Below are positions 3,215-12,882 of a DNA stretch of 24,433 nucleotides, piece after piece. The DNA is from an uncultured Candidatus Peribacteria bacterium (GTDB lineage: Bacteria > Patescibacteriota > Gracilibacteria > Peribacterales > Peribacteraceae): NCBI GenBank assembly GCA_964558635.1, contig CAZLEW010000003.1:1-24433 (forward strand), written 5' to 3'. Position numbers and translations under genes: made by a program. The notes below the pieces were generated by a model that saw only the letters and a list, made by a program, of their open reading frames with translations, made no database searches and was not told the origin of the DNA. Position 1 is the stretch's first letter. Every line of letters begins with the position of its first letter.

Positions 3215-3832
3215 ATGCCCCATCACAGCCCCACGCGCGGCTTTGGATTACTCGAAACATGGCTCGCTTCCAAACGGGCCGCTACTGCTGATGCACTCAT
3301 CCCCGATACTCTGCGCTGTGGCACTCTCGTTGATATCGGTTGTGGCGTACCTCCACTCTTTGTAGAACGAACGCAATTCACAAAAAAGATCGGCATCGAC
3401 ATTCGCTGTACTACAACGTTCGATCATGCAACAGGCATCGCGCACATCAAGCACGACGCTACCTCTGCGCCTCTACCACTCCCTGATGCATCGGCGGATG
3501 TCATCACGATGCTCGCGATGAGCGAGCACATCCCCTACGAACACATCCCAATACTCCTGACAGACATCAATCGCATTTTGCGACCAGGAGGACTTCTCAT
3601 CATCACATCGCCGACACCGCTCGCATTCATCCCCCTGTGGATATTCTCGATCATTGGCCTGGTGAGTAAACAAGAAATTGACGACCACAAGCAACTCCTG
3701 CCTCTGTGCACGCTCACGACGATGATTGAATCAACAGGTATGCATGTCTCTACAACTGGCACATTCGAATGGGGGATGAATATGTGGCTCCTAGCGAGCC
3801 ACTCATCTTGCTGCCACCGCGAGCAAGCGTAG
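3215..3832 (+). CDS. Class I SAM-dependent methyltransferase
   Basis: Motif I LVDIGCG, post-II LPLPDASADVIT, EHI, and RILRPGGLLIITSP. Confidence 0.85.
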   Translation: MPHHSPTRGFGLLETWLASKRAATADALIPDTLRCGTLVDIGCGVPPLFVERTQFTKKIGIDIRCTTTFDHATGIAHIKHDATSAPLPLPDASADVITMLAMSEHIPYEHIPILLTDINRILRPGGLLIITSPTPLAFIPLWIFSIIGLVSKQEIDDHKQLLPLCTLTTMIESTGMHVSTTGTFEWGMNMWLLASHSSCCHREQA

Positions 3833-3859
3833 TATGTGAGATAATTTACTTCCCACTGC

Positions 3860-4948: not shown

Positions 4949-6310
4949 TTACGGCGTGGTCGTCTCGAAGTTGAGGTTAATGAAGCTTGCGGCGGCATTG
5001 GCGCTGGCGGTGCTATCTGCTGCAAGCTTCACGTAGATCGTGGCATATTGCGCTGTGGCATTGGTACTCGCCGTCCATGTACCTGCGGATTCAGGACCCG
5101 TCACGTTCGCCGTTGTCCATGATGTACTCGCGAGCCCGCCGCCGTTTGTCAGCGTTACGCTCGCACCAGCGGTATCTTTCATGCGCACCGTGACGTGGTT
5201 ATTGGCGGCAGATGCGACACCCGTCTTGTAACGGAACTCGATCGGCTTCACAGGATCCCACGAGCTGAAGTTGTTTGGGATACGGAAGCGAACAGAGATC
5301 CAGTAATCCTGGAGTGTGCCGCGTGTCGAGGTCCAGACGTAGCTATTATCAAGCGCAGCCGTACCACCGGAACCGTAGAGCTGACCGATATAGCTCGCAC
5401 CGGAGGAGAAGTACACAGCGCCTGGATACTCTGGCTGCATCGACATGATGAGACCTGAACCGTTGTTAACACTCGTAGCCGTCCATGTGAGGTTACCTGC
5501 GCCATCATTGGTGAGGGAACCGGCACCCTGCGCTGTCGGTGCGTTGTACGTCAATCCGCGGAGTGTGAGTGCACCACCGATATTGAGCGTCGCACCTGAG
5601 ATAGCTCCTTCTGTACGGATCGTGCCGGAAGCGGAAAGGCTTTGGACCTGCGCATTACCGTCGATACGGAGGGTCGAACCCGAGATACCCCCGACGACAC
5701 TCACGTCCTTACTGAACTGGAATCTCTGGCTAGAATGTAAGTACTTCAAGGTTTGGTTAGTCGTTTGGTTTCCGAAGGTAAGAACAGCGTCTGCACCTGT
5801 CGTACGATCATCGTTGATCGTAAAGTCGCCGTCGGCGCGGAAGGCACCCGACGCAGTGAGTTCACCATGCACCGCGGCTGGGCCACTCACGCGGAGTGTG
5901 GAACCCGAGAGGAAGGTCTTCGCGGTGATAGAACCAACGCCAAGGATGGCACCTGTGACAGTCAACGTACCGCCGACGGTCGCATTGCGATCGACGTTCA
6001 ACGACGAACCCGACATCGTGCCGAGGACGCTAATTGAATGTGAGAATTGAAATTTCTGCGTTGCGTAGAGGAACTTCATTGTCTTCGTAGAAGCACCGAA
6101 ACGAAGTTCGATATCCGATGTACCATTCCCTGCATCAATCTCTTGGAATGCTTCTGTATTCACAAGCAGTGTTGGCTTCCACGAGGAGGCGGCAGTCGCA
6201 ATCTGCGGTAACACACTCGACGCAACAAGTGCGAGCGCGGTAGCAGCATGCGTCACCTTGCGTAGTGCAAGGGAAGCGAGCGAGCCAGAAGTGTGTAGGT
6301 ATTTGTTCAT
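4949..6310 (-). CDS. Secreted fibre/beta-helix-like surface protein (453 aa)
   Basis: The likely start is MNKYLHT at 6310 rather than 6430. It has a signal-like segment ending QIATAA, repeated G(T/A)(M/I/L)SG(S/A)(S/T)L motifs, and a C-terminal domain paralogous to that of 6442..8763. Confidence 0.8.
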   Translation of the reverse strand: MNKYLHTSGSLASLALRKVTHAATALALVASSVLPQIATAASSWKPTLLVNTEAFQEIDAGNGTSDIELRFGASTKTMKFLYATQKFQFSHSISVLGTMSGSSLNVDRNATVGGTLTVTGAILGVGSITAKTFLSGSTLRVSGPAAVHGELTASGAFRADGDFTINDDRTTGADAVLTFGNQTTNQTLKYLHSSQRFQFSKDVSVVGGISGSTLRIDGNAQVQSLSASGTIRTEGAISGATLNIGGALTLRGLTYNAPTAQGAGSLTNDGAGNLTWTATSVNNGSGLIMSMQPEYPGAVYFSSGASYIGQLYGSGGTAALDNSYVWTSTRGTLQDYWISVRFRIPNNFSSWDPVKPIEFRYKTGVASAANNHVTVRMKDTAGASVTLTNGGGLASTSWTTANVTGPESAGTWTASTNATAQYATIYVKLAADSTASANAAASFINLNFETTTP

Positions 6311-6334
6311 AAATGTTTGTGGAAGTTTCTGATC

Positions 6335-6363
6335 ATTATAGCGAATAAAAAGTTTTTGCGCAA
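6335..6363 (-). promoter_or_regulatory. Sigma70-type promoter for the 6310 gene
   Basis: On the minus strand: TTGCGC (6363-6358), 17 nt, TATAAT (6340-6335). This supports the internal start at 6310. Confidence 0.7.
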
Positions 6364-6441
6364 GAGTAGATTTATTGGGTGGATGATGATGTTGTAGTGA
6401 TGGTGGTGATGGAGCGTAACGTGCGTACATAAAGGAAGGGG

Positions 6442-8763
6442 TTACGGTGTAAGGCGAACATACTTCAACTTCATACTGCCGATATGCGCCTGGTAGTTAT
6501 CTTTCGCGTAGAGCTTGAATTTGATGAGGAATTCCTGCCCGGCGGTCCATGTCGCACCAGTATCGAACGTGAGGGCAGATGTACCCCACGACGTAGATGC
6601 TAATCCCGTAGCGGATCCACCGAGCGCGACTGGCGTACCGTTCGTATCGAAGAGTGACACATCCACTTTGCTATTGGTCACATCGGCAGATGTTGTGCGG
6701 TACGACACCGAGAGTGGTGCACTGTCCCATCGAGCGAAGTCAGCAGGGAGCGATACACGAACAACAACGTCATAATCCTGCAACGTCGCACGTGTCGAAT
6801 TCCAGAGGTAGAAGTTGCGCTGTGTGATGTTATCGAGTGAGACAGAAAGCTGACCCGTATTCTCCGTCGCATCAGCTTGATAGCTCGCATTCTGGAATTC
6901 AGCATGCAGATTCACTTCGGTTGTTTGTTCGCGATCATCACTCAGAACAACGCGGAAGTCATTGATCTGCGTCACATTCGTTCCATTTGTTATGACTTCT
7001 GCAAGACGGATGAATGATTCATCGGTGGGGAAGCCCGATGTCCGAACAGTGAGACCACCCGACCCAATGAAGACCTGACTCGTCGTATTTGCTGGAACAG
7101 CAACACCCGATGCACCCGCGAAGTCTGTCACATCACCATTGATACGGTACGCGCCACCCGTGATATTCACAGACAGACCCGCGCCGCTGCTTACGCGCAG
7201 CTTTCCTTCGTCCGAGCCTGCAATGCTCGAGATATCAATACCGTTGATGAGACCCGTGACCACGAGGTCACCTTCGATGCGCACGTCTGCACTAAACGTG
7301 AAGCGATCGTTCAGAATGTCGTAGCTCAATGTTTTGGCAAGAGCTTGGCCGAATTGCAACGTAATCAGGCTCGAAGCAGTGTTATTCGCATCGACCACGA
7401 AGGTATCGCGATTGGTACCACCTGGCACAACCGCAACGGGCAAGAGGCCACCACTGCCAAGGAGTGGGATAGAACCACTTCCTGTGCCAATTTCACGCTG
7501 ATCGAGCAAGTCAGCATTCTGCGCAAACGGCACCGAGAGGATCGGCGAGCGATCGATCAGATCATCCGACGGATTCACATCGAGCACTTCGTATGCCGAA
7601 TCGAGGCTGCCCGCGGCTTTTACCTCGACCTGGAGGAAGAGGTTATCGAGATCCGACGTCGCGACCGCAGCAAGGTTTGGAAGTGTGGCACCCGTACCAA
7701 GGATAACCGAGAAGTACCCCTGGCTATCAGGCGTCACAACGTGCACTTCTTGGTATCCAGCGTACATTGCCGCTCCCGTATTAATGATACCAGCGTTGAC
7801 ATCACCCGTGACCAAGTCGCGGCTGTACCATTGACTGAAGCGAATGTAGTGCGGTGTGGTGATCGCCTGACCGGATGCATTCAGGAGATGACCATTATAG
7901 ACAGTGCGCTCGGGCGACGAGACAGCGGCTTCCGCTGCTTGCACCGTGAGGACTGCAGCAATCGAGAGTGCGATGATGAGCAATGCGACGTACCAGAGGG
8001 AACGACTGATGCGTCGGCGATGCAGCGACAGCAGAACGACGAGCAACGTCACAACGCAACCAAGAAGGAAGAACAGGAGCAAGAGCAACCATGTCCATGG
8101 CGATCCTGTGCATGCGGATGCAACAGAACCGAGTGCATCGACAATCACATCGCCAAGTGTTACGCCACGATCAGTCGAACGATCGATTGGTGGAACAGGT
8201 AACAGTTCGATGCGGTGGTAGAACCCTGCAGGGCAAAGGATCGATGCACATGCATTTGTGCTGCTCACGGATGATGTAGACGAAACGGATGCCGCTGGGC
8301 GGAGCGCTTCAGATGAAACTGACACATCCTGCGAACTCGAAGAGACCGACGAAGCTTGAGATGATGAGGAGGAAGAAACTGCGGATGACGATGAAGCGCG
8401 GGATGAACGCACGGGAGGATTCGTCGTGGTCGTGCCTTCGCCACGGTGACCACCATCATCTTCATCAGACGATACCGATGAAGCAGTAGACGATGCACCA
8501 GCGCTACTCGCGGGCACAGGAGGCGCAGTCGTAATCTGGAAATTATTGCTGTGGAGCGGAGCCTCTTGGCGCCACGAGAGATCACCCTGCATGCGGAAGT
8601 TCGTCGAGCCATGCGGCAGACCTGCTGCGTTGCCCGGGCCGACTTCTTGCATTTGGAACGTCGTACTCGCAGCAGCGGACACCGCACCGATGAAGGTGCA
8701 GAATCCCGTCACACCGAGGAGGAGTGAGAGGAGGGTGCCGATGACGGAGCGATTACGCGTCAT
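6442..8763 (-). CDS. Large membrane-anchored surface protein with Ser-rich linker, two internal TM helices and a tail-fibre-type module
   Basis: Signal peptide, poly-Ser linker, then TM-RRRISR-TM. After that comes a VYNGHL.N..G...IRF...G.FSV.LG...LQVEVK...SVPFA..A module seen in fibre-like proteins. The C-terminal domain is shared with 4949..6310. Confidence 0.8.
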   Translation of the reverse strand: MTRNRSVIGTLLSLLLGVTGFCTFIGAVSAAASTTFQMQEVGPGNAAGLPHGSTNFRMQGDLSWRQEAPLHSNNFQITTAPPVPASSAGASSTASSVSSDEDDGGHRGEGTTTTNPPVRSSRASSSSAVSSSSSSQASSVSSSSQDVSVSSEALRPAASVSSTSSVSSTNACASILCPAGFYHRIELLPVPPIDRSTDRGVTLGDVIVDALGSVASACTGSPWTWLLLLLFFLLGCVVTLLVVLLSLHRRRISRSLWYVALLIIALSIAAVLTVQAAEAAVSSPERTVYNGHLLNASGQAITTPHYIRFSQWYSRDLVTGDVNAGIINTGAAMYAGYQEVHVVTPDSQGYFSVILGTGATLPNLAAVATSDLDNLFLQVEVKAAGSLDSAYEVLDVNPSDDLIDRSPILSVPFAQNADLLDQREIGTGSGSIPLLGSGGLLPVAVVPGGTNRDTFVVDANNTASSLITLQFGQALAKTLSYDILNDRFTFSADVRIEGDLVVTGLINGIDISSIAGSDEGKLRVSSGAGLSVNITGGAYRINGDVTDFAGASGVAVPANTTSQVFIGSGGLTVRTSGFPTDESFIRLAEVITNGTNVTQINDFRVVLSDDREQTTEVNLHAEFQNASYQADATENTGQLSVSLDNITQRNFYLWNSTRATLQDYDVVVRVSLPADFARWDSAPLSVSYRTTSADVTNSKVDVSLFDTNGTPVALGGSATGLASTSWGTSALTFDTGATWTAGQEFLIKFKLYAKDNYQAHIGSMKLKYVRLTP

Positions 8764-8766
8764 GGG

Positions 8767-9324
8767 TTAAGAAGCGAGTGGGTCAATCGGATGTAACGGA
8801 GAAAAAGCGGCAGTGCCGGATACTTCCAGATCGGAAGCGGACGGCGCGCCAAAATGATCACGGAGCGGAGCTGACTGACGCTTCTGCTCGTGTGACTTCG
8901 TTGCTGCAAAGAAGAAACCGTACCGTGCAATCGTGCGGCCAACGCTGGATGCAGAAATCGAAACGCCGTACTGCCGCTTGAGTAATTCTGCAATCGCATC
9001 CTTGCCAAGCAGCGGCTGCTCACGGCGGACATCACGAATCAACGTGACGATGTGCTCAGCGATCTCTGGTTCGCGCACACGATGTGGGCGACGCGACTCC
9101 TCCTCGATCGTTCGAATATCACGAACATCAAAACGTTCTGCCCATCGCAAGAACGTCGAACGTGCGATACCAAAATGGCGACACGTAAGACTCACGTTGC
9201 TTTCATGTTCGAGTGCGTATGAAAACCACTTCAAACGTTGCACTGCATCTTCACTCAGCTCCAGCTCTTTCGCCCGCTTGAGCAGGTGACGAACATCCCG
9301 AAGGCGAATGGTCCACGAATGCAT
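8767..9324 (-). CDS. IS481/IS3-type helix-turn-helix DNA-binding protein lacking the DDE/integrase core
   Basis: RLKWFSY....NVSLTCRHFGIARSTFLRWAERFD...EESRRPHR...IRDVRREQPLLGK..I..LL..YGVSISASSVGRTI is a tandem-HTH transposase N-terminus. The ORF ends at 185 aa with no catalytic region. Its stop is 3 nt before the next ATG (TAACCCATG). Confidence 0.75.
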   Translation of the reverse strand: MHSWTIRLRDVRHLLKRAKELELSEDAVQRLKWFSYALEHESNVSLTCRHFGIARSTFLRWAERFDVRDIRTIEEESRRPHRVREPEIAEHIVTLIRDVRREQPLLGKDAIAELLKRQYGVSISASSVGRTIARYGFFFAATKSHEQKRQSAPLRDHFGAPSASDLEVSGTAAFSPLHPIDPLAS

Positions 9325-9375
9325 GAATATTTTTTTGTGTGTTGGGTCCGCGCGCGTACGCGAAAGACTCTCAAT

Positions 9376-9404
9376 ATTGTAGCACCTTTAAATATTTTCG
9401 TCCA
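9376..9404 (-). promoter_or_regulatory. Promoter of the HTH/surface-protein operon
   Basis: On the minus strand: TGGACG (9404-9399), 17 nt, TACAAT (9381-9376), with an extended -10 TG at 9384-9383. Confidence 0.65.
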
Positions 9405-9407
9405 GTA

Positions 9408-10672
9408 CCGTCGAGATGTATCTGACCATAGGCTTGCTCATGCGGCGCTTGATGTGAGAACGAGACGACAAGCAATCGACGCGCATGTATCGGAACATCG
9501 CCCAATGCGATACAAAACCATACGAAGTACATATGACGATTCACGCCCTAACTGACGCGGGGTTGTTAGAACAAAGCTCTAACCATAGCGACAAATCACC
9601 TACTACACGGATAGGAACACAACATGCCTGGATGTATCGGAACCTTACGCAATCAGCTAATGCGGTACAGTGGTATTATCACATCACATAGTTGATTCGG
9701 CGTCCAATGAGCAAATCGCATTGTGTACTAGCCAATAAAAGCATGAAGTACTCTTCATACATGATTCATGTGAAAAGTATAGAAATACATGATGCACATG
9801 CATCGGAACATGCGGCAGTCCTGCGACGTCATTGCACAGTGGATGTGATCAACTTCGCCCGTTCTGTTCTGGGTGTACCCGAACACATAGCACACAGTAA
9901 CAAACACAACGTCAAGCCGGGATATTACACCGATTGTCGCGGATGTATCGTGACACGTGTCCTTGCGCAGACATACAATTTTTTCGCTCTACGAAGCCCT
10001 ACTGTCGTGGACGTATCGGAACATATGTTTATATAAATGACACAATAAAGCATATACTGCAAGACAACGTACTCACGTCGCTGCAGGAAGAGCTATTTCA
10101 CCTGTGAGAAGGGTATCGCAGATGTATCAGAACTTTCCGCAGATATACAGTATACTGCACAAGCAAGCTGCATGGATCACTCCTCCTGCATCTAGTAGAC
10201 AAGATGCATCGCGTACGAACCGAAGAACACGCCGAGGGAGACTCCTCCAATTCCAACGTACAACACGTGTCGCGCATGTATCAGAACATGTCGCACACCT
10301 ACGATGTCATGACACAGCAAATGTACCATACTCAGCATGAGATGTAGCGCTTGTACCTGAACGTATGGCGTAATCTTGAACTCTAGAGCCTCACTTACGT
10401 CTATTCCATTCATTGTCGCGGATGTGTCGTGAACCATGGCCCTAACTTGGGATGCAAGAGTGTCGCTCTCCAAATGTCTGCTGTAGCAGATGTATCTGAA
10501 CAAATCGAAACTCTGTTTTACCGCAATAGAAACGCCGGGTGCATCGTATGTTTCGAAACATGTGTTCGAAGAACGCGCATTCAATTCCACTCAACAATCA
10601 TACAAACATCTTTAGCGCTTCCATCAGGACTAAACGGCATGCACCCCCTCTGTTGCGGATGTATCGGAACAT
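9408..10672 (+). repeat. Non-coding array of ~16 degenerate direct repeats (core ATGTATCGGAACAT, extended TGTCGCRGATGTATCRGAACAT) with ~70-bp period
   Basis: 14-mer starts at 9416, 9485, 9632, 9798, 9873, 9943, 10011, 10122, 10276, 10351, 10422, 10490, 10548 and 10659, with weaker copies near 9561, 9723 and 10204. All are on the same strand; most gaps are 68-76 bp. Confidence 0.85.
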
Positions 10673-10674
10673 AC

Positions 10675-10704
10675 TTGTATCCCTTTGGCGTATTCTGCTA
10701 GTAT
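10675..10704 (+). promoter_or_regulatory. Promoter of the SLH gene
   Basis: TTGTAT (10675-10680), 18 nt, TAGTAT (10699-10704), with an extended TG at 10696-10697. Confidence 0.55.
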
Positions 10705-10726
10705 TAGCACAATTTCCCCCATACTG

Positions 10727-11770
10727 ATGGTGCACCCTTCCCGCATCCTTTCTGCCCTCACGGTCGCCGCGCTCGTCGCTGCACCACTCTCGGCTTTTGC
10801 TCAAACATCGTCGTTTAAAGATGTCCCGACGAGTCATCCAGCATCTGCTGCTATCGAGTACCTCAAAGAAAAGAATATTATCTCAGGGTATCCCGATGGC
10901 ACATTTAAGCCAGAAGCAAAAGTAAACCGCGCAGAAGCACTGAAGATCATCGTGGCACCATACGTTACGCCAGAGATCCTCGCCACAGCCAGTTCAACCG
11001 TGTACGTCGACGTTCCGACTGGTTCATGGTTTCTTCCGTATGTTGAGGCTGCCCGCCAAATACTTGGAATCATCGATGGCCCGCCAAAAGCGACAAACTT
11101 CAACCCCACGCGCAACGTGAATAAAGCAGAGTTCATTAAAATGCTCCTCATCGCCAATAAGGTTGATCCCACGACAACGCTCGGTGAAATCCGCGGAGGA
11201 CTCGCAACCGATGTCACCAATCCCGACGAATGGTTCTACCCGCATATGCGCTTCGCTGTGGCAGCGTCGATGACGATGGTTGGCGAAGATGGCGCGCTCA
11301 ACCCAGGGCAAGAGCTAACACGCGGACAAGTCGCACTATTGCTCTACCGCTTAGAAATGTTCAAGCAGGGTCGCCGTACGCAGGCGTTGCTCACCGAAGC
11401 TGAAACGGAAATTATTAATGTACTCTCACTCTTTGAGAAGAAAGATATTGTGAATGCTGAGTATGCTGCGACGCGCTCAACCGTCGCTGCACGCGGCGCA
11501 CTGATCAGTGCTCCAGACGAGGCAATTGTGAAGGGAGCAGTGAAGATCTCTGAGGGGTTCCAAGCACTCGTACAGTCGTACAAGGCAGGCTTGAGCGGAA
11601 ACCTTGATGGGGCAATCGCACTCTCGGGTACGGCCTGGAACAGCGCCGCCAAAGCCATGGAATTTAGCCCGGGACTCAATGAAGTTGCTTTACAAATGCA
11701 GAAAATTGCAAAGACCATTGCAGACGACGCTCGCGCCCTGAAGGCGAGTGGCGGCGTACCGGCACAGTAA
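10727..11770 (+). CDS. S-layer homology (SLH) domain protein
   Basis: The likely start is MVHPSR at 10727, with a signal peptide ending SAFA. SLH motifs: FKDVP..H.A..AIEYL....IISGYPDGTFKPE..VNRAE, further copies VNKAEF and LTRGQVA. The C-terminus is helical. Confidence 0.9.
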   Translation: MVHPSRILSALTVAALVAAPLSAFAQTSSFKDVPTSHPASAAIEYLKEKNIISGYPDGTFKPEAKVNRAEALKIIVAPYVTPEILATASSTVYVDVPTGSWFLPYVEAARQILGIIDGPPKATNFNPTRNVNKAEFIKMLLIANKVDPTTTLGEIRGGLATDVTNPDEWFYPHMRFAVAASMTMVGEDGALNPGQELTRGQVALLLYRLEMFKQGRRTQALLTEAETEIINVLSLFEKKDIVNAEYAATRSTVAARGALISAPDEAIVKGAVKISEGFQALVQSYKAGLSGNLDGAIALSGTAWNSAAKAMEFSPGLNEVALQMQKIAKTIADDARALKASGGVPAQ

Positions 11771-11877: not shown

Positions 11878-12882
11878 CTAAATTAAATTCTGCACGAGCG
11901 CAATCATGCGTTCCTTCTCATTCGCATCACTCTGGGCAATCAGCAACGCGAGCGCCACGAGCGCGCTATCGCCAATGCGTCGCTCGCCCCCACTCCTAAG
12001 CTTCCCGTGCTTACGCAAATACAGAACAAACAAGAGCGACCCGATGCGTTTGTTCCCGTCGACGAACGGATGATCTTTGATGATGAAGTAGAGCAGATGC
12101 GCCGCACGTTCTTCAATGCTCATGTAGAGGGGCTCTGCATCAAACGTTTGATGCAGGTTTCGCAGAATAGACTGCAAGCCTCCAACGGGCCTCTCTTGGC
12201 CAAACAGCTCGCTCGCCGTCCCTTTCTTGCGCAGGTCTTTCGCGAGGAGCGCAATCGCTCGCGCGGCTTCCGCTTCTTCAAAATCACGGAGTTTCTTTGT
12301 TGTCCGAACCCGAAACGGCAGTTCACCATCATCAAACTGATGTAAGGTCGCCCAGCTGCGGGCGTAATCAGTAATGACATGCAACATGCCCTTCGCTTCA
12401 TCCCCCGAGAGCTGCCGCTGATCCGCTGCCGAGCGGATCATCCCGACTGTTTTTTCCAACTCGCTTAAATCCTTAAGGCGCACATCGCGCAAGCGACGTT
12501 GATTGAGCGTATATCCCTTCACCAGATGCCCCGTCAGGACCGATGTCGCCCACTGGCGAAACCGCGTGCCCTCTTTACTATTCACACGGTAGCCGACGGA
12601 GATAATCATATCGAGGTTGTAATATTCAACGCTGAACGTTCGGCCATCCGGAAGATGTGTAGCAAATTTTTTCACAGATTTTTTTGGCTTCAATTCTTCA
12701 CTGTCAAAAATACCCTTCATATGACGAGAGATACCCGATTTATCAACACCGAAAAGTGATACCATTTGGTTCAGACTCAACCATACGGTGTCTCCATCGA
12801 GCTTTACATGCACTGCCTTTGACGCACCGGCCCCTTTGTAGACGACAATATTTCCTGTCGGCGGCAGATTTTCATGTAGCAT
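11878..12882 (-). CDS. RhuM-family protein fused to a Fic/Doc domain
   Basis: N-terminal DTVWLSLNQM..LF...YYNLDMIISVGYRVNS..GTRFRQWAT (RhuM); C-terminal HPFVDGNKRIG (Fic/Doc motif). Confidence 0.9.
   Translation of the reverse strand: MLHENLPPTGNIVVYKGAGASKAVHVKLDGDTVWLSLNQMVSLFGVDKSGISRHMKGIFDSEELKPKKSVKKFATHLPDGRTFSVEYYNLDMIISVGYRVNSKEGTRFRQWATSVLTGHLVKGYTLNQRRLRDVRLKDLSELEKTVGMIRSAADQRQLSGDEAKGMLHVITDYARSWATLHQFDDGELPFRVRTTKKLRDFEEAEAARAIALLAKDLRKKGTASELFGQERPVGGLQSILRNLHQTFDAEPLYMSIEERAAHLLYFIIKDHPFVDGNKRIGSLLFVLYLRKHGKLRSGGERRIGDSALVALALLIAQSDANEKERMIALVQNLI

Follow-up and report, generated by a model that had tools for sequence, protein, structure and literature searches.

A transposase-type helix-turn-helix protein and a one-way motif array as a likely membrane-linked gene switch in Peribacteria

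We analysed a stretch of 24,433 nucleotides from an uncultured Candidatus Peribacteria bacterium, called the window below, which is the complete 24.4-kb contig C3 of a 0.96-Mb genome (93% complete). It holds a locus in which a small helix-turn-helix (HTH) protein, P0001, lies beside an array of repeated motifs between two cell-surface genes. The HTH gene (8767–9324, minus strand) encodes 185 aa and was assigned as a transposase-derived bipartite HTH protein from domain, alignment and AlphaFold2 (AF2) evidence. It is followed on the same strand by the gene of a 773-aa surface protein (6442–8763), delimited by its translation, transmembrane (TM) segments, gene junctions, synteny and colinearity with a protein of genome G024. 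On the other side, a 1.36-kb spacer separates the HTH gene from a divergent gene for a secreted 347-aa SLH protein (10727–11770, plus strand; Pfam SLH 7e-26, translation and orthologues). This spacer carries 14 same-strand copies of cTGTcGCGgATGTaTCnGAACat, which form an array from 9408 to 10672 on the plus strand, found by mismatch search and with a position weight matrix (PWM). The order of surface gene, HTH gene, long spacer with array and divergent SLH gene was observed in 21 of 21 loci with long flanks, and each of these loci has an orthologue of the SLH protein at 45–81% identity. The HTH protein and the array most likely make up a previously undescribed membrane-linked gene switch, as judged from the sequence comparisons described here.

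In a Pfam scan, P0001 matched only HTH families (HTH_32, HTH_28, HTH_29 and HTH_33). Among the NCBIfam models, it aligns to positions 1–111 of the 284-position IS481 transposase model (NF033577; E 1.3e-19), and its score of 70.8 bits lies below the family cut-off of 224 for a full-length member. The open reading frame (ORF) stops at 185 aa and NCBIfam and Pfam show no DDE core in it; the rve/DDE model PF00665 gave zero matches genome-wide, a count to be read with the fact that the same model also missed an IS481-type ORF on contig C121 of this genome. The IS481 model had no second match on the window's contig beyond P0001.

In the AF2 model (pLDDT 81.6), residues ∼8–151 are folded and the tail, 156–185, is disordered; helices span 25–64 and 90–135, and the linker between them (65–89) has a lower pLDDT. 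The model predicts a bipartite architecture of two HTH subdomains and a flexible linker, with middling Z values. Its top full-length structural match is the bipartite DNA-binding domain of Tc3 (1u78; Z 6.6, 100 of 103 residues aligned), and the only solved structures aligning over both subdomains are transposase DNA-binding domains (Tc3, TnsB, SETMAR and IstA); paired domains also appear. A profile search of the PDB with P0001 returned only Sleeping Beauty (E 0.007) and Pax5 (E 0.95). The otherwise variable, disordered tail closes, across genera, with a conserved P-x-(L/I)-(A/T)-S (window 8767–8800), which may act as a docking peptide or reflect a constraint imposed by translational coupling.

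P0001 has homologues (E ≤1e-25) in 83 of 200 genomes of the order and in 40 of 84 genera. The HTH family comprises >90 protein clusters of ∼180–190 aa, and 20 residues are invariant among the 49 homologues that were aligned. Between congeners, the ratio of non-synonymous to synonymous substitution rates (dN/dS) of the HTH gene is 0.09–0.35 at a dS of 0.6–2, that is, with synonymous sites near saturation. The HTH gene is a conserved host gene under purifying selection. No terminal inverted repeats flank the HTH ORF, and the region 9300–10740 holds just two trivial inverted repeats. The features that mark a mobile IS481 element (terminal inverted repeats, target duplication, multiple or mobile copies) were absent, and a single orthologous locus was found across genera.

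From the mismatch search, we observed 12 matches (≤3 mismatches) to GATGTATCGGAACAT within 9415–10672, against 0.7 expected for the whole window. Eleven of them are on the plus strand and the twelfth is the minus-strand reading of a palindromic copy at 10547–10562. The PWM search raised the number of copies to 14, with 18-nt PWM windows starting at 9412, 9481, 9628, 9794, 9869, 9939, 10007, 10118, 10272, 10347, 10418, 10486, 10544 and 10655; the core-to-core spacings are 69, 147, 166, 75, 70, 68, 111, 154, 75, 70, 69, 58 and 111 bp. Throughout the genome (0.96 Mb), the motif at ≤1 mismatch is present in the array only, plus one match in a coding sequence, and the strong PWM matches are likewise confined to the array, the remaining ones lying in coding DNA. 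Tandem Repeats Finder detected zero repeats in the array because its units are too diverged.

The motif is asymmetric and ∼22 bp long with an unconstrained central base; its consensus is cTGTcGCGgATGTaTCnGAACat in the genus and gCGcATGTgTCTGAACTT family-wide, with ATGTnTCTGAACTT as the conserved core; the outer ACA belongs to the genus level. Across loci, 2–14 copies are spread over 0.3–1.4 kb. Their spacings peak at 60–100 bp and then at ∼130–150 and ∼210–220 bp, those of <60 bp being rare, and the two copies nearest the HTH promoter are 67–69 bp apart in many genera. Two observations concern single copies. The segment 10544–10562 contains a perfect 12-bp palindrome, TGTTTCGAAACA, which scores on both strands and resembles a parS half-site pair without the central 4 bp. 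The best match outside the array, GCAGATGTGTCTGAACTT (C58:3274, minus strand; 24.7 bits, ∼0.07 expected by chance), is inside a 631-aa ORF. Small ORFs starting at an ATG within the motif were considered and rejected, the reading frames being inconsistent among copies.

From the spacing patterns and copy-by-copy similarity, the part of the array at 10272–10672 (plus strand) was identified as the younger copy of an internal duplication of ∼480 bp, its copies corresponding to those at 9794–10135. A congener, G001, carries an unduplicated version with seven sites. Between the window and G001, six orthologous sites keep a constant offset with one 1-bp indel across 600 bp. The identity is 26–29% (random) in the spacers of 123–142 nt, 50–56% in those of 44–45 nt and 77% in the 13-nt core. 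The distances between sites are under constraint, and the long spacers are randomised.

A promoter scan placed a promoter-like site for the HTH/surface operon, TGGACG-17-TGcTACAAT, at 9376–9404 on the minus strand. The candidate SLH promoter, TTGTAT-N18-TAGTAT (10676–10705, plus strand), was read by eye below the promoter-scan threshold and starts 3 nt past the last motif copy; three congeners share its layout (TTGTGA-N18 followed by TAGGCT, TACGCT or TAGTCT). Within the genus, the terminal copies of the array abut both −35 elements, the last copy ending 3 nt ahead of the SLH −35-like hexamer; beyond the genus this distance is 5 to ≥22 nt. The non-proximal copies showed no promoter features and no conserved −10 at any fixed distance, and an array of tandem promoters was rejected on that ground.

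The presence of the array was compared with that of the HTH gene using a PWM built from the window and seven related loci (eight loci) and tested on loci outside that set; 1.5 kb upstream of HTH genes was scanned for matches of 8 bits or more. Upstream of 19 independent HTH loci of other genera we observed 110 forward and 9 reverse matches, compared with 6 + 2 in the downstream control regions. Seventeen loci with an SLH orthologue and no adjacent HTH gene gave one forward and one reverse match. A paralogue group elsewhere in the genomes (C130 next to dprA, G004 and G015) keeps one forward copy 178–191 bp upstream of the start.

Two genomes of the same genus, G006 and G007, lack both the HTH ORF and the array, and have the surface gene immediately next to the SLH gene. 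At 80% identity, their SLH protein is closer to that of the window than is the SLH protein of the HTH-bearing G005. In G006 the promoter ahead of the surface gene is retained (window 9374–9413 aligned to L058 4841–4880). As this promoter stands between the lost parts, the HTH ORF and the array must have been removed by two separate deletions. In G007 a decayed relic of the proximal site is retained. The GAAC and GATC variants of the motif cluster on the HTH tree, which is weakly resolved; such co-variation was set aside as evidence, since common descent accounts for the pattern equally well.

The above results agree with most of the original prediction. It had described an HTH-only protein without a DDE core or evident insertion sequence (IS) ends, served by its own promoter, coupled by a 3-nt gap to the 773-aa gene and neighboured by a motif array, and all of this was confirmed. 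It had also held that neutral decay of the orthologues, a DDE remnant nearby or a lack of co-occurrence would speak against co-option. Instead, the orthologues are widespread and selected, no remnant lies next to the HTH gene, and the HTH gene and array occur and are lost together. The interpretation that a transposase domain has been co-opted is supported by these data, and we infer from them that P0001 binds the array and thereby affects transcription.

The 773-aa protein consists of TM1 (residues 7–25), a Ser-rich external loop, TM2 and TM3 (226–274) and a C-terminal ectodomain of ∼500 aa, for which Pfam and NCBIfam gave no match and Atlas look-alikes stayed below useful scores. The HTH ORF ends in TAA, and only CCC separates this stop codon from the start codon (ATG) of the 773-aa ORF, a 3-nt gap that keeps the two in frame. 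This in-frame TAA CCC ATG junction (window 8761–8772; L038, L039 and L040) is common to the four closest species; in other genera the frame is not kept, and the two genes either have 2 nt between them or overlap by 4 nt. Read-through of the single TAA stop would restore the fused membrane-tethered form known from other genera.

In G024, G223, G222, G026, G022, G030 and G005 and on contig C130 of this genome, a set that mixes orthologues and paralogues of P0001, one ORF of 884–1728 aa carries the HTH at its N-terminus. The 1008-aa fusion of G024 is colinear with the window's HTH and 773-aa proteins (HTH, TM1, Ser-rich loop, TM2, TM3, ectodomain), and its ectodomain is 49% identical to that of the 773-aa protein. 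Among the fused paralogues, one has a Laminin_G_3 lectin domain and another a tail-spike-type Peptidase_G2 domain. The paralogue on C130 (L009 835–1899), whose gene is cut off by the contig end, has its HTH joined to a TM segment and to a fibre-like C-terminal region. It is oriented divergently from dprA and preceded by two weak motif copies (604–990) in the same relative orientation. From the in-frame, gapped, overlapping and fused junctions, we concluded that the HTH/surface pair has been repeatedly fused and split. P0001 corresponds to a cytoplasmic head that can be detached from the 3-TM surface protein encoded downstream. The stand-alone regulator that had been proposed covers only part of the picture, as the HTH is a separate ORF in the window and is fused to the surface protein in several genera.

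On balance, it is probable that the array is an operator lying between two cell-surface operons and that the P0001-type bipartite HTH acts on it, as one part of a split transmembrane regulator or fused into one. P0001 would be a domesticated DNA-binding head of an IS481-type transposase, with two HTH subdomains and a linker as in Tc3, Mos1 and the paired domains. As a monomer it would recognise the asymmetric ∼22-bp motif, one subdomain being predicted to contact TGTcGCG and the other ATGTnTCnGAAC. The HTH may serve as the cytoplasmic module of the transmembrane surface protein, fused to it in some genera and split from it and translationally coupled here. With copies filling the entire spacer from the HTH promoter to the divergent SLH promoter, the occupied array might form a spacing-locked nucleoprotein array that sets transcription of both cell-surface operons. 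Control would come from the membrane in the fused forms and through a soluble partner in the split forms, and the number of sites (2–14) could act as an evolvable gain control.

Several points weigh against this reading. The HTH gene and the array are adjacent, so much of their co-occurrence is also expected from linkage and common descent. Homologues below ∼47% identity give few or no matches with the present PWM, and the structural matches of P0001 are middling (Z <8, Foldseek E >0.3). A simple model of an activator at −41 fails to generalise, because the distance from the last copy to the −35 is kept only within the genus and the non-proximal copies are without promoter features. The model also leaves unexplained why there should be up to 14 sites at spacings of 60–100 bp. 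A more far-reaching form of the proposal is offered only tentatively and is rather doubtful: a lineage-wide signalling device in which monomers dock on a one-way array of ≤14 sites, the SLH locus is brought together at the membrane, with a readout that depends on what the ectodomain senses, the number of sites sets an evolvable gain, and fission and fusion switch between soluble and tethered states.

The most economical reading, in which the HTH binds the motif as a monomer and the occupied array controls both operons, would place the system functionally among the transmembrane transcription regulators (TTRs: ToxR, TcpP, CadC and relatives) surveyed in PMC10269533. The support for promoter control from the membrane is positional, the sites abutting both −35 elements within the genus. 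As in the TTRs, a single polypeptide in the fused orthologues combines a cytoplasmic DNA-binding domain at its N-terminus with TM segment(s) and an extracytoplasmic domain, and the presumed target is a neighbouring gene of the surface or envelope. The direct repeats on which ToxR acts likewise vary in number. The module described here differs from the TTRs in several respects. Its HTH is of the bipartite transposase type instead of the OmpR-type winged helix, and it is combined with three TM segments and a fibre- or lectin-like ectodomain of 500–1500 aa. In the window DNA-binding and TM parts are not on one polypeptide, as the HTH is a separate, translationally coupled protein whose ORF stops 3 nt before the ATG of the TM protein. 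The putative operator is a unidirectional array of 2–14 sites over 0.3–1.4 kb with fixed spacing.

The DNA-binding domains of bipartite transposases (Tc3 1u78, Mos1/SETMAR, TnsB and IstA) share with P0001 the two three-helix HTH subdomains and a linker. They bind an asymmetric site of ∼20–26 bp as monomers, and the array motif would fit in size and asymmetry. Several sites in the same orientation are also a feature of Tn7/Mu-type ends. P0001 differs from an IS481 transposase in being without catalytic core, element ends or mobility; it is a vertically inherited, selected host gene attached to a membrane protein. The recruitment of a transposase DNA-binding domain as a sequence-specific binder of the host is shared with SETMAR, CENP-B, the Pax paired domain and FHY3/FAR1, the sites of which may descend from element ends. 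Unlike these eukaryotic binders with dispersed sites, the present case is bacterial and has an array dedicated to a single locus.

A prior description of such a system was not found in the literature searched. Eukaryotes provide well-documented examples of transposase DNA-binding domains domesticated as host regulators; in bacteria this has seldom been shown. The locus offers a clean bacterial case, with the protein and its cis-array both in view and with natural knock-outs in the congeners that lack both. For transmembrane one-component regulators it would add a new DNA-binding module and an unusual operator geometry of many wide, precisely spaced one-way sites. It also bears on bacteria of the CPR type, in which the regulation of surface and attachment proteins is essentially unknown. 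The shortness of the motif and the small size of the protein bring the central claim within reach of in vitro tests that need no culture of the organism.

Among the alternatives, we first consider that the same partners bind each other in a structural role, the membrane-linked HTH tethering this part of the chromosome to the envelope at regular intervals, as a DNA–membrane anchor or a scaffold that positions the surface protein, with any effect on transcription being secondary. The fused forms do place the HTH on a 3-TM protein, spacing is kept to the base pair where spacer sequence is not, and most copies are far from either promoter and without promoter features. The spacings, rarely <60 bp with a mode at 60–100 bp, also look as though bulky occupants needed room. 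However, the divergent promoter region is in every case exactly what the array covers, and within the genus the terminal copies abut both −35 elements. In this genome the HTH is encoded as a soluble protein of its own, two congeners manage without the whole module, and such a scaffold has no precedent. We regard a tether as unlikely.

It is also quite unlikely that the array is read by another factor, or as RNA in a long SLH leader, with the HTH gene as a mere travelling neighbour. Every copy is on the sense strand of the SLH gene, and neighbouring elements would in any case be inherited and deleted together. Within the motif, gcGGAUGU presumably resembles the CsrA SELEX motif. Against such a role, neither the central base of TCnGA nor the GGA trinucleotides are conserved, and a CsrA sponge was rejected for the latter reason. 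The promoter-proximal copy is upstream of the −35 and hence would be outside the SLH transcript. An RNA element was likewise rejected, the search having given no Rfam match at gathering thresholds, one weak match (E <1) and no tRNA. The motif is present upstream of HTH paralogues without an SLH neighbour and missing from the 17 SLH loci without an HTH gene, and G006 lost the ORF and the array in two separate deletions around a kept promoter.

A replication origin, an iteron or centromere cluster or a degenerate CRISPR-like array is very improbable, even though direct repeats of ∼20 bp with a ∼70-bp period and variable copy number are what such elements would show. The array is dispensable in the congeners G006 and G007, GC skew is negative across the whole window with no switch at the array, and a Pfam scan of 10 neighbouring ORFs showed no dnaA, parA, Rep or cas domains. 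The repeats are only 70–90% alike and the spacers are positionally orthologous between species. We accordingly rejected a CRISPR array, which would have near-identical repeats of ≥23 nt (those compared here are 74–95% alike), unique spacers and cas genes or a leader, as well as a chromosomal origin, iteron or centromere, which would be indispensable, coincide with a skew switch and have a Rep or ParA partner.

That the HTH gene and the array are a decaying, functionless IS481 insertion scar, with a truncated transposase gene and degenerate end repeats, has in its favour the homology of P0001 to the N-termini of IS481, IS630 and IS3 transposases and the several transposase sites in one orientation that Tn7/Mu-type ends bear, but this is already contradicted by the selection and synteny data and is extremely improbable, given a single-copy gene at a fixed locus in ≥40 genera, strong purifying selection despite saturated dS, motif cores and spacing conserved whereas spacers are randomised, neither a DDE remnant nor inverted repeats, and fusion of the HTH to a host membrane protein in several genera.

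The original prediction had also likened a TGT-N6-ACA in the array core to the ends of IS481 elements. This link was not supported: across the family, the outer ACA is not conserved. Two IS481-type genes were available for comparison, and neither of them linked the motif to IS ends by descent. One is a nearly full-length IS481-type transposase ORF of the same genome (C121:1359–2281; 307 aa, 180.9 bits, model positions 2–283), which sits at the end of a 2.3-kb contig and has no significant similarity to P0001 (best BLASTP E 0.28). The other, on an unrelated contig of another metagenome (L076; 2147–2465, 2918–2935 / 3818–3835), is a truncated IS481-like gene with the HTH and a partial rve domain; inverted ends were looked for and none were found, and the gene is flanked by direct, not inverted, copies of TTGTCTATGTCCA. 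This gene has Fic genes to either side and is preceded by repeats of ∼135-bp period that contain TTCGTCCAC...GTGGACGAA palindromes.

The sequencing runs that hold the locus are DNA runs only, from wastewater metagenomes. Beyond the surface gene, a gene at 4949–6430 (minus strand) encodes a 493-aa protein with no family match in Pfam or NCBIfam. It is probably the third gene of the operon, since, among the related loci checked, several (L039, L041 and L046) also have a gene of ∼500 aa on the downstream side of the surface gene. On the other side, a gene for a RhuM/Fic-domain protein (11878–12882, minus strand) lies between the SLH gene and topA; it looks like an insertion, because in G002 the SLH gene directly precedes a topA-sized ORF.

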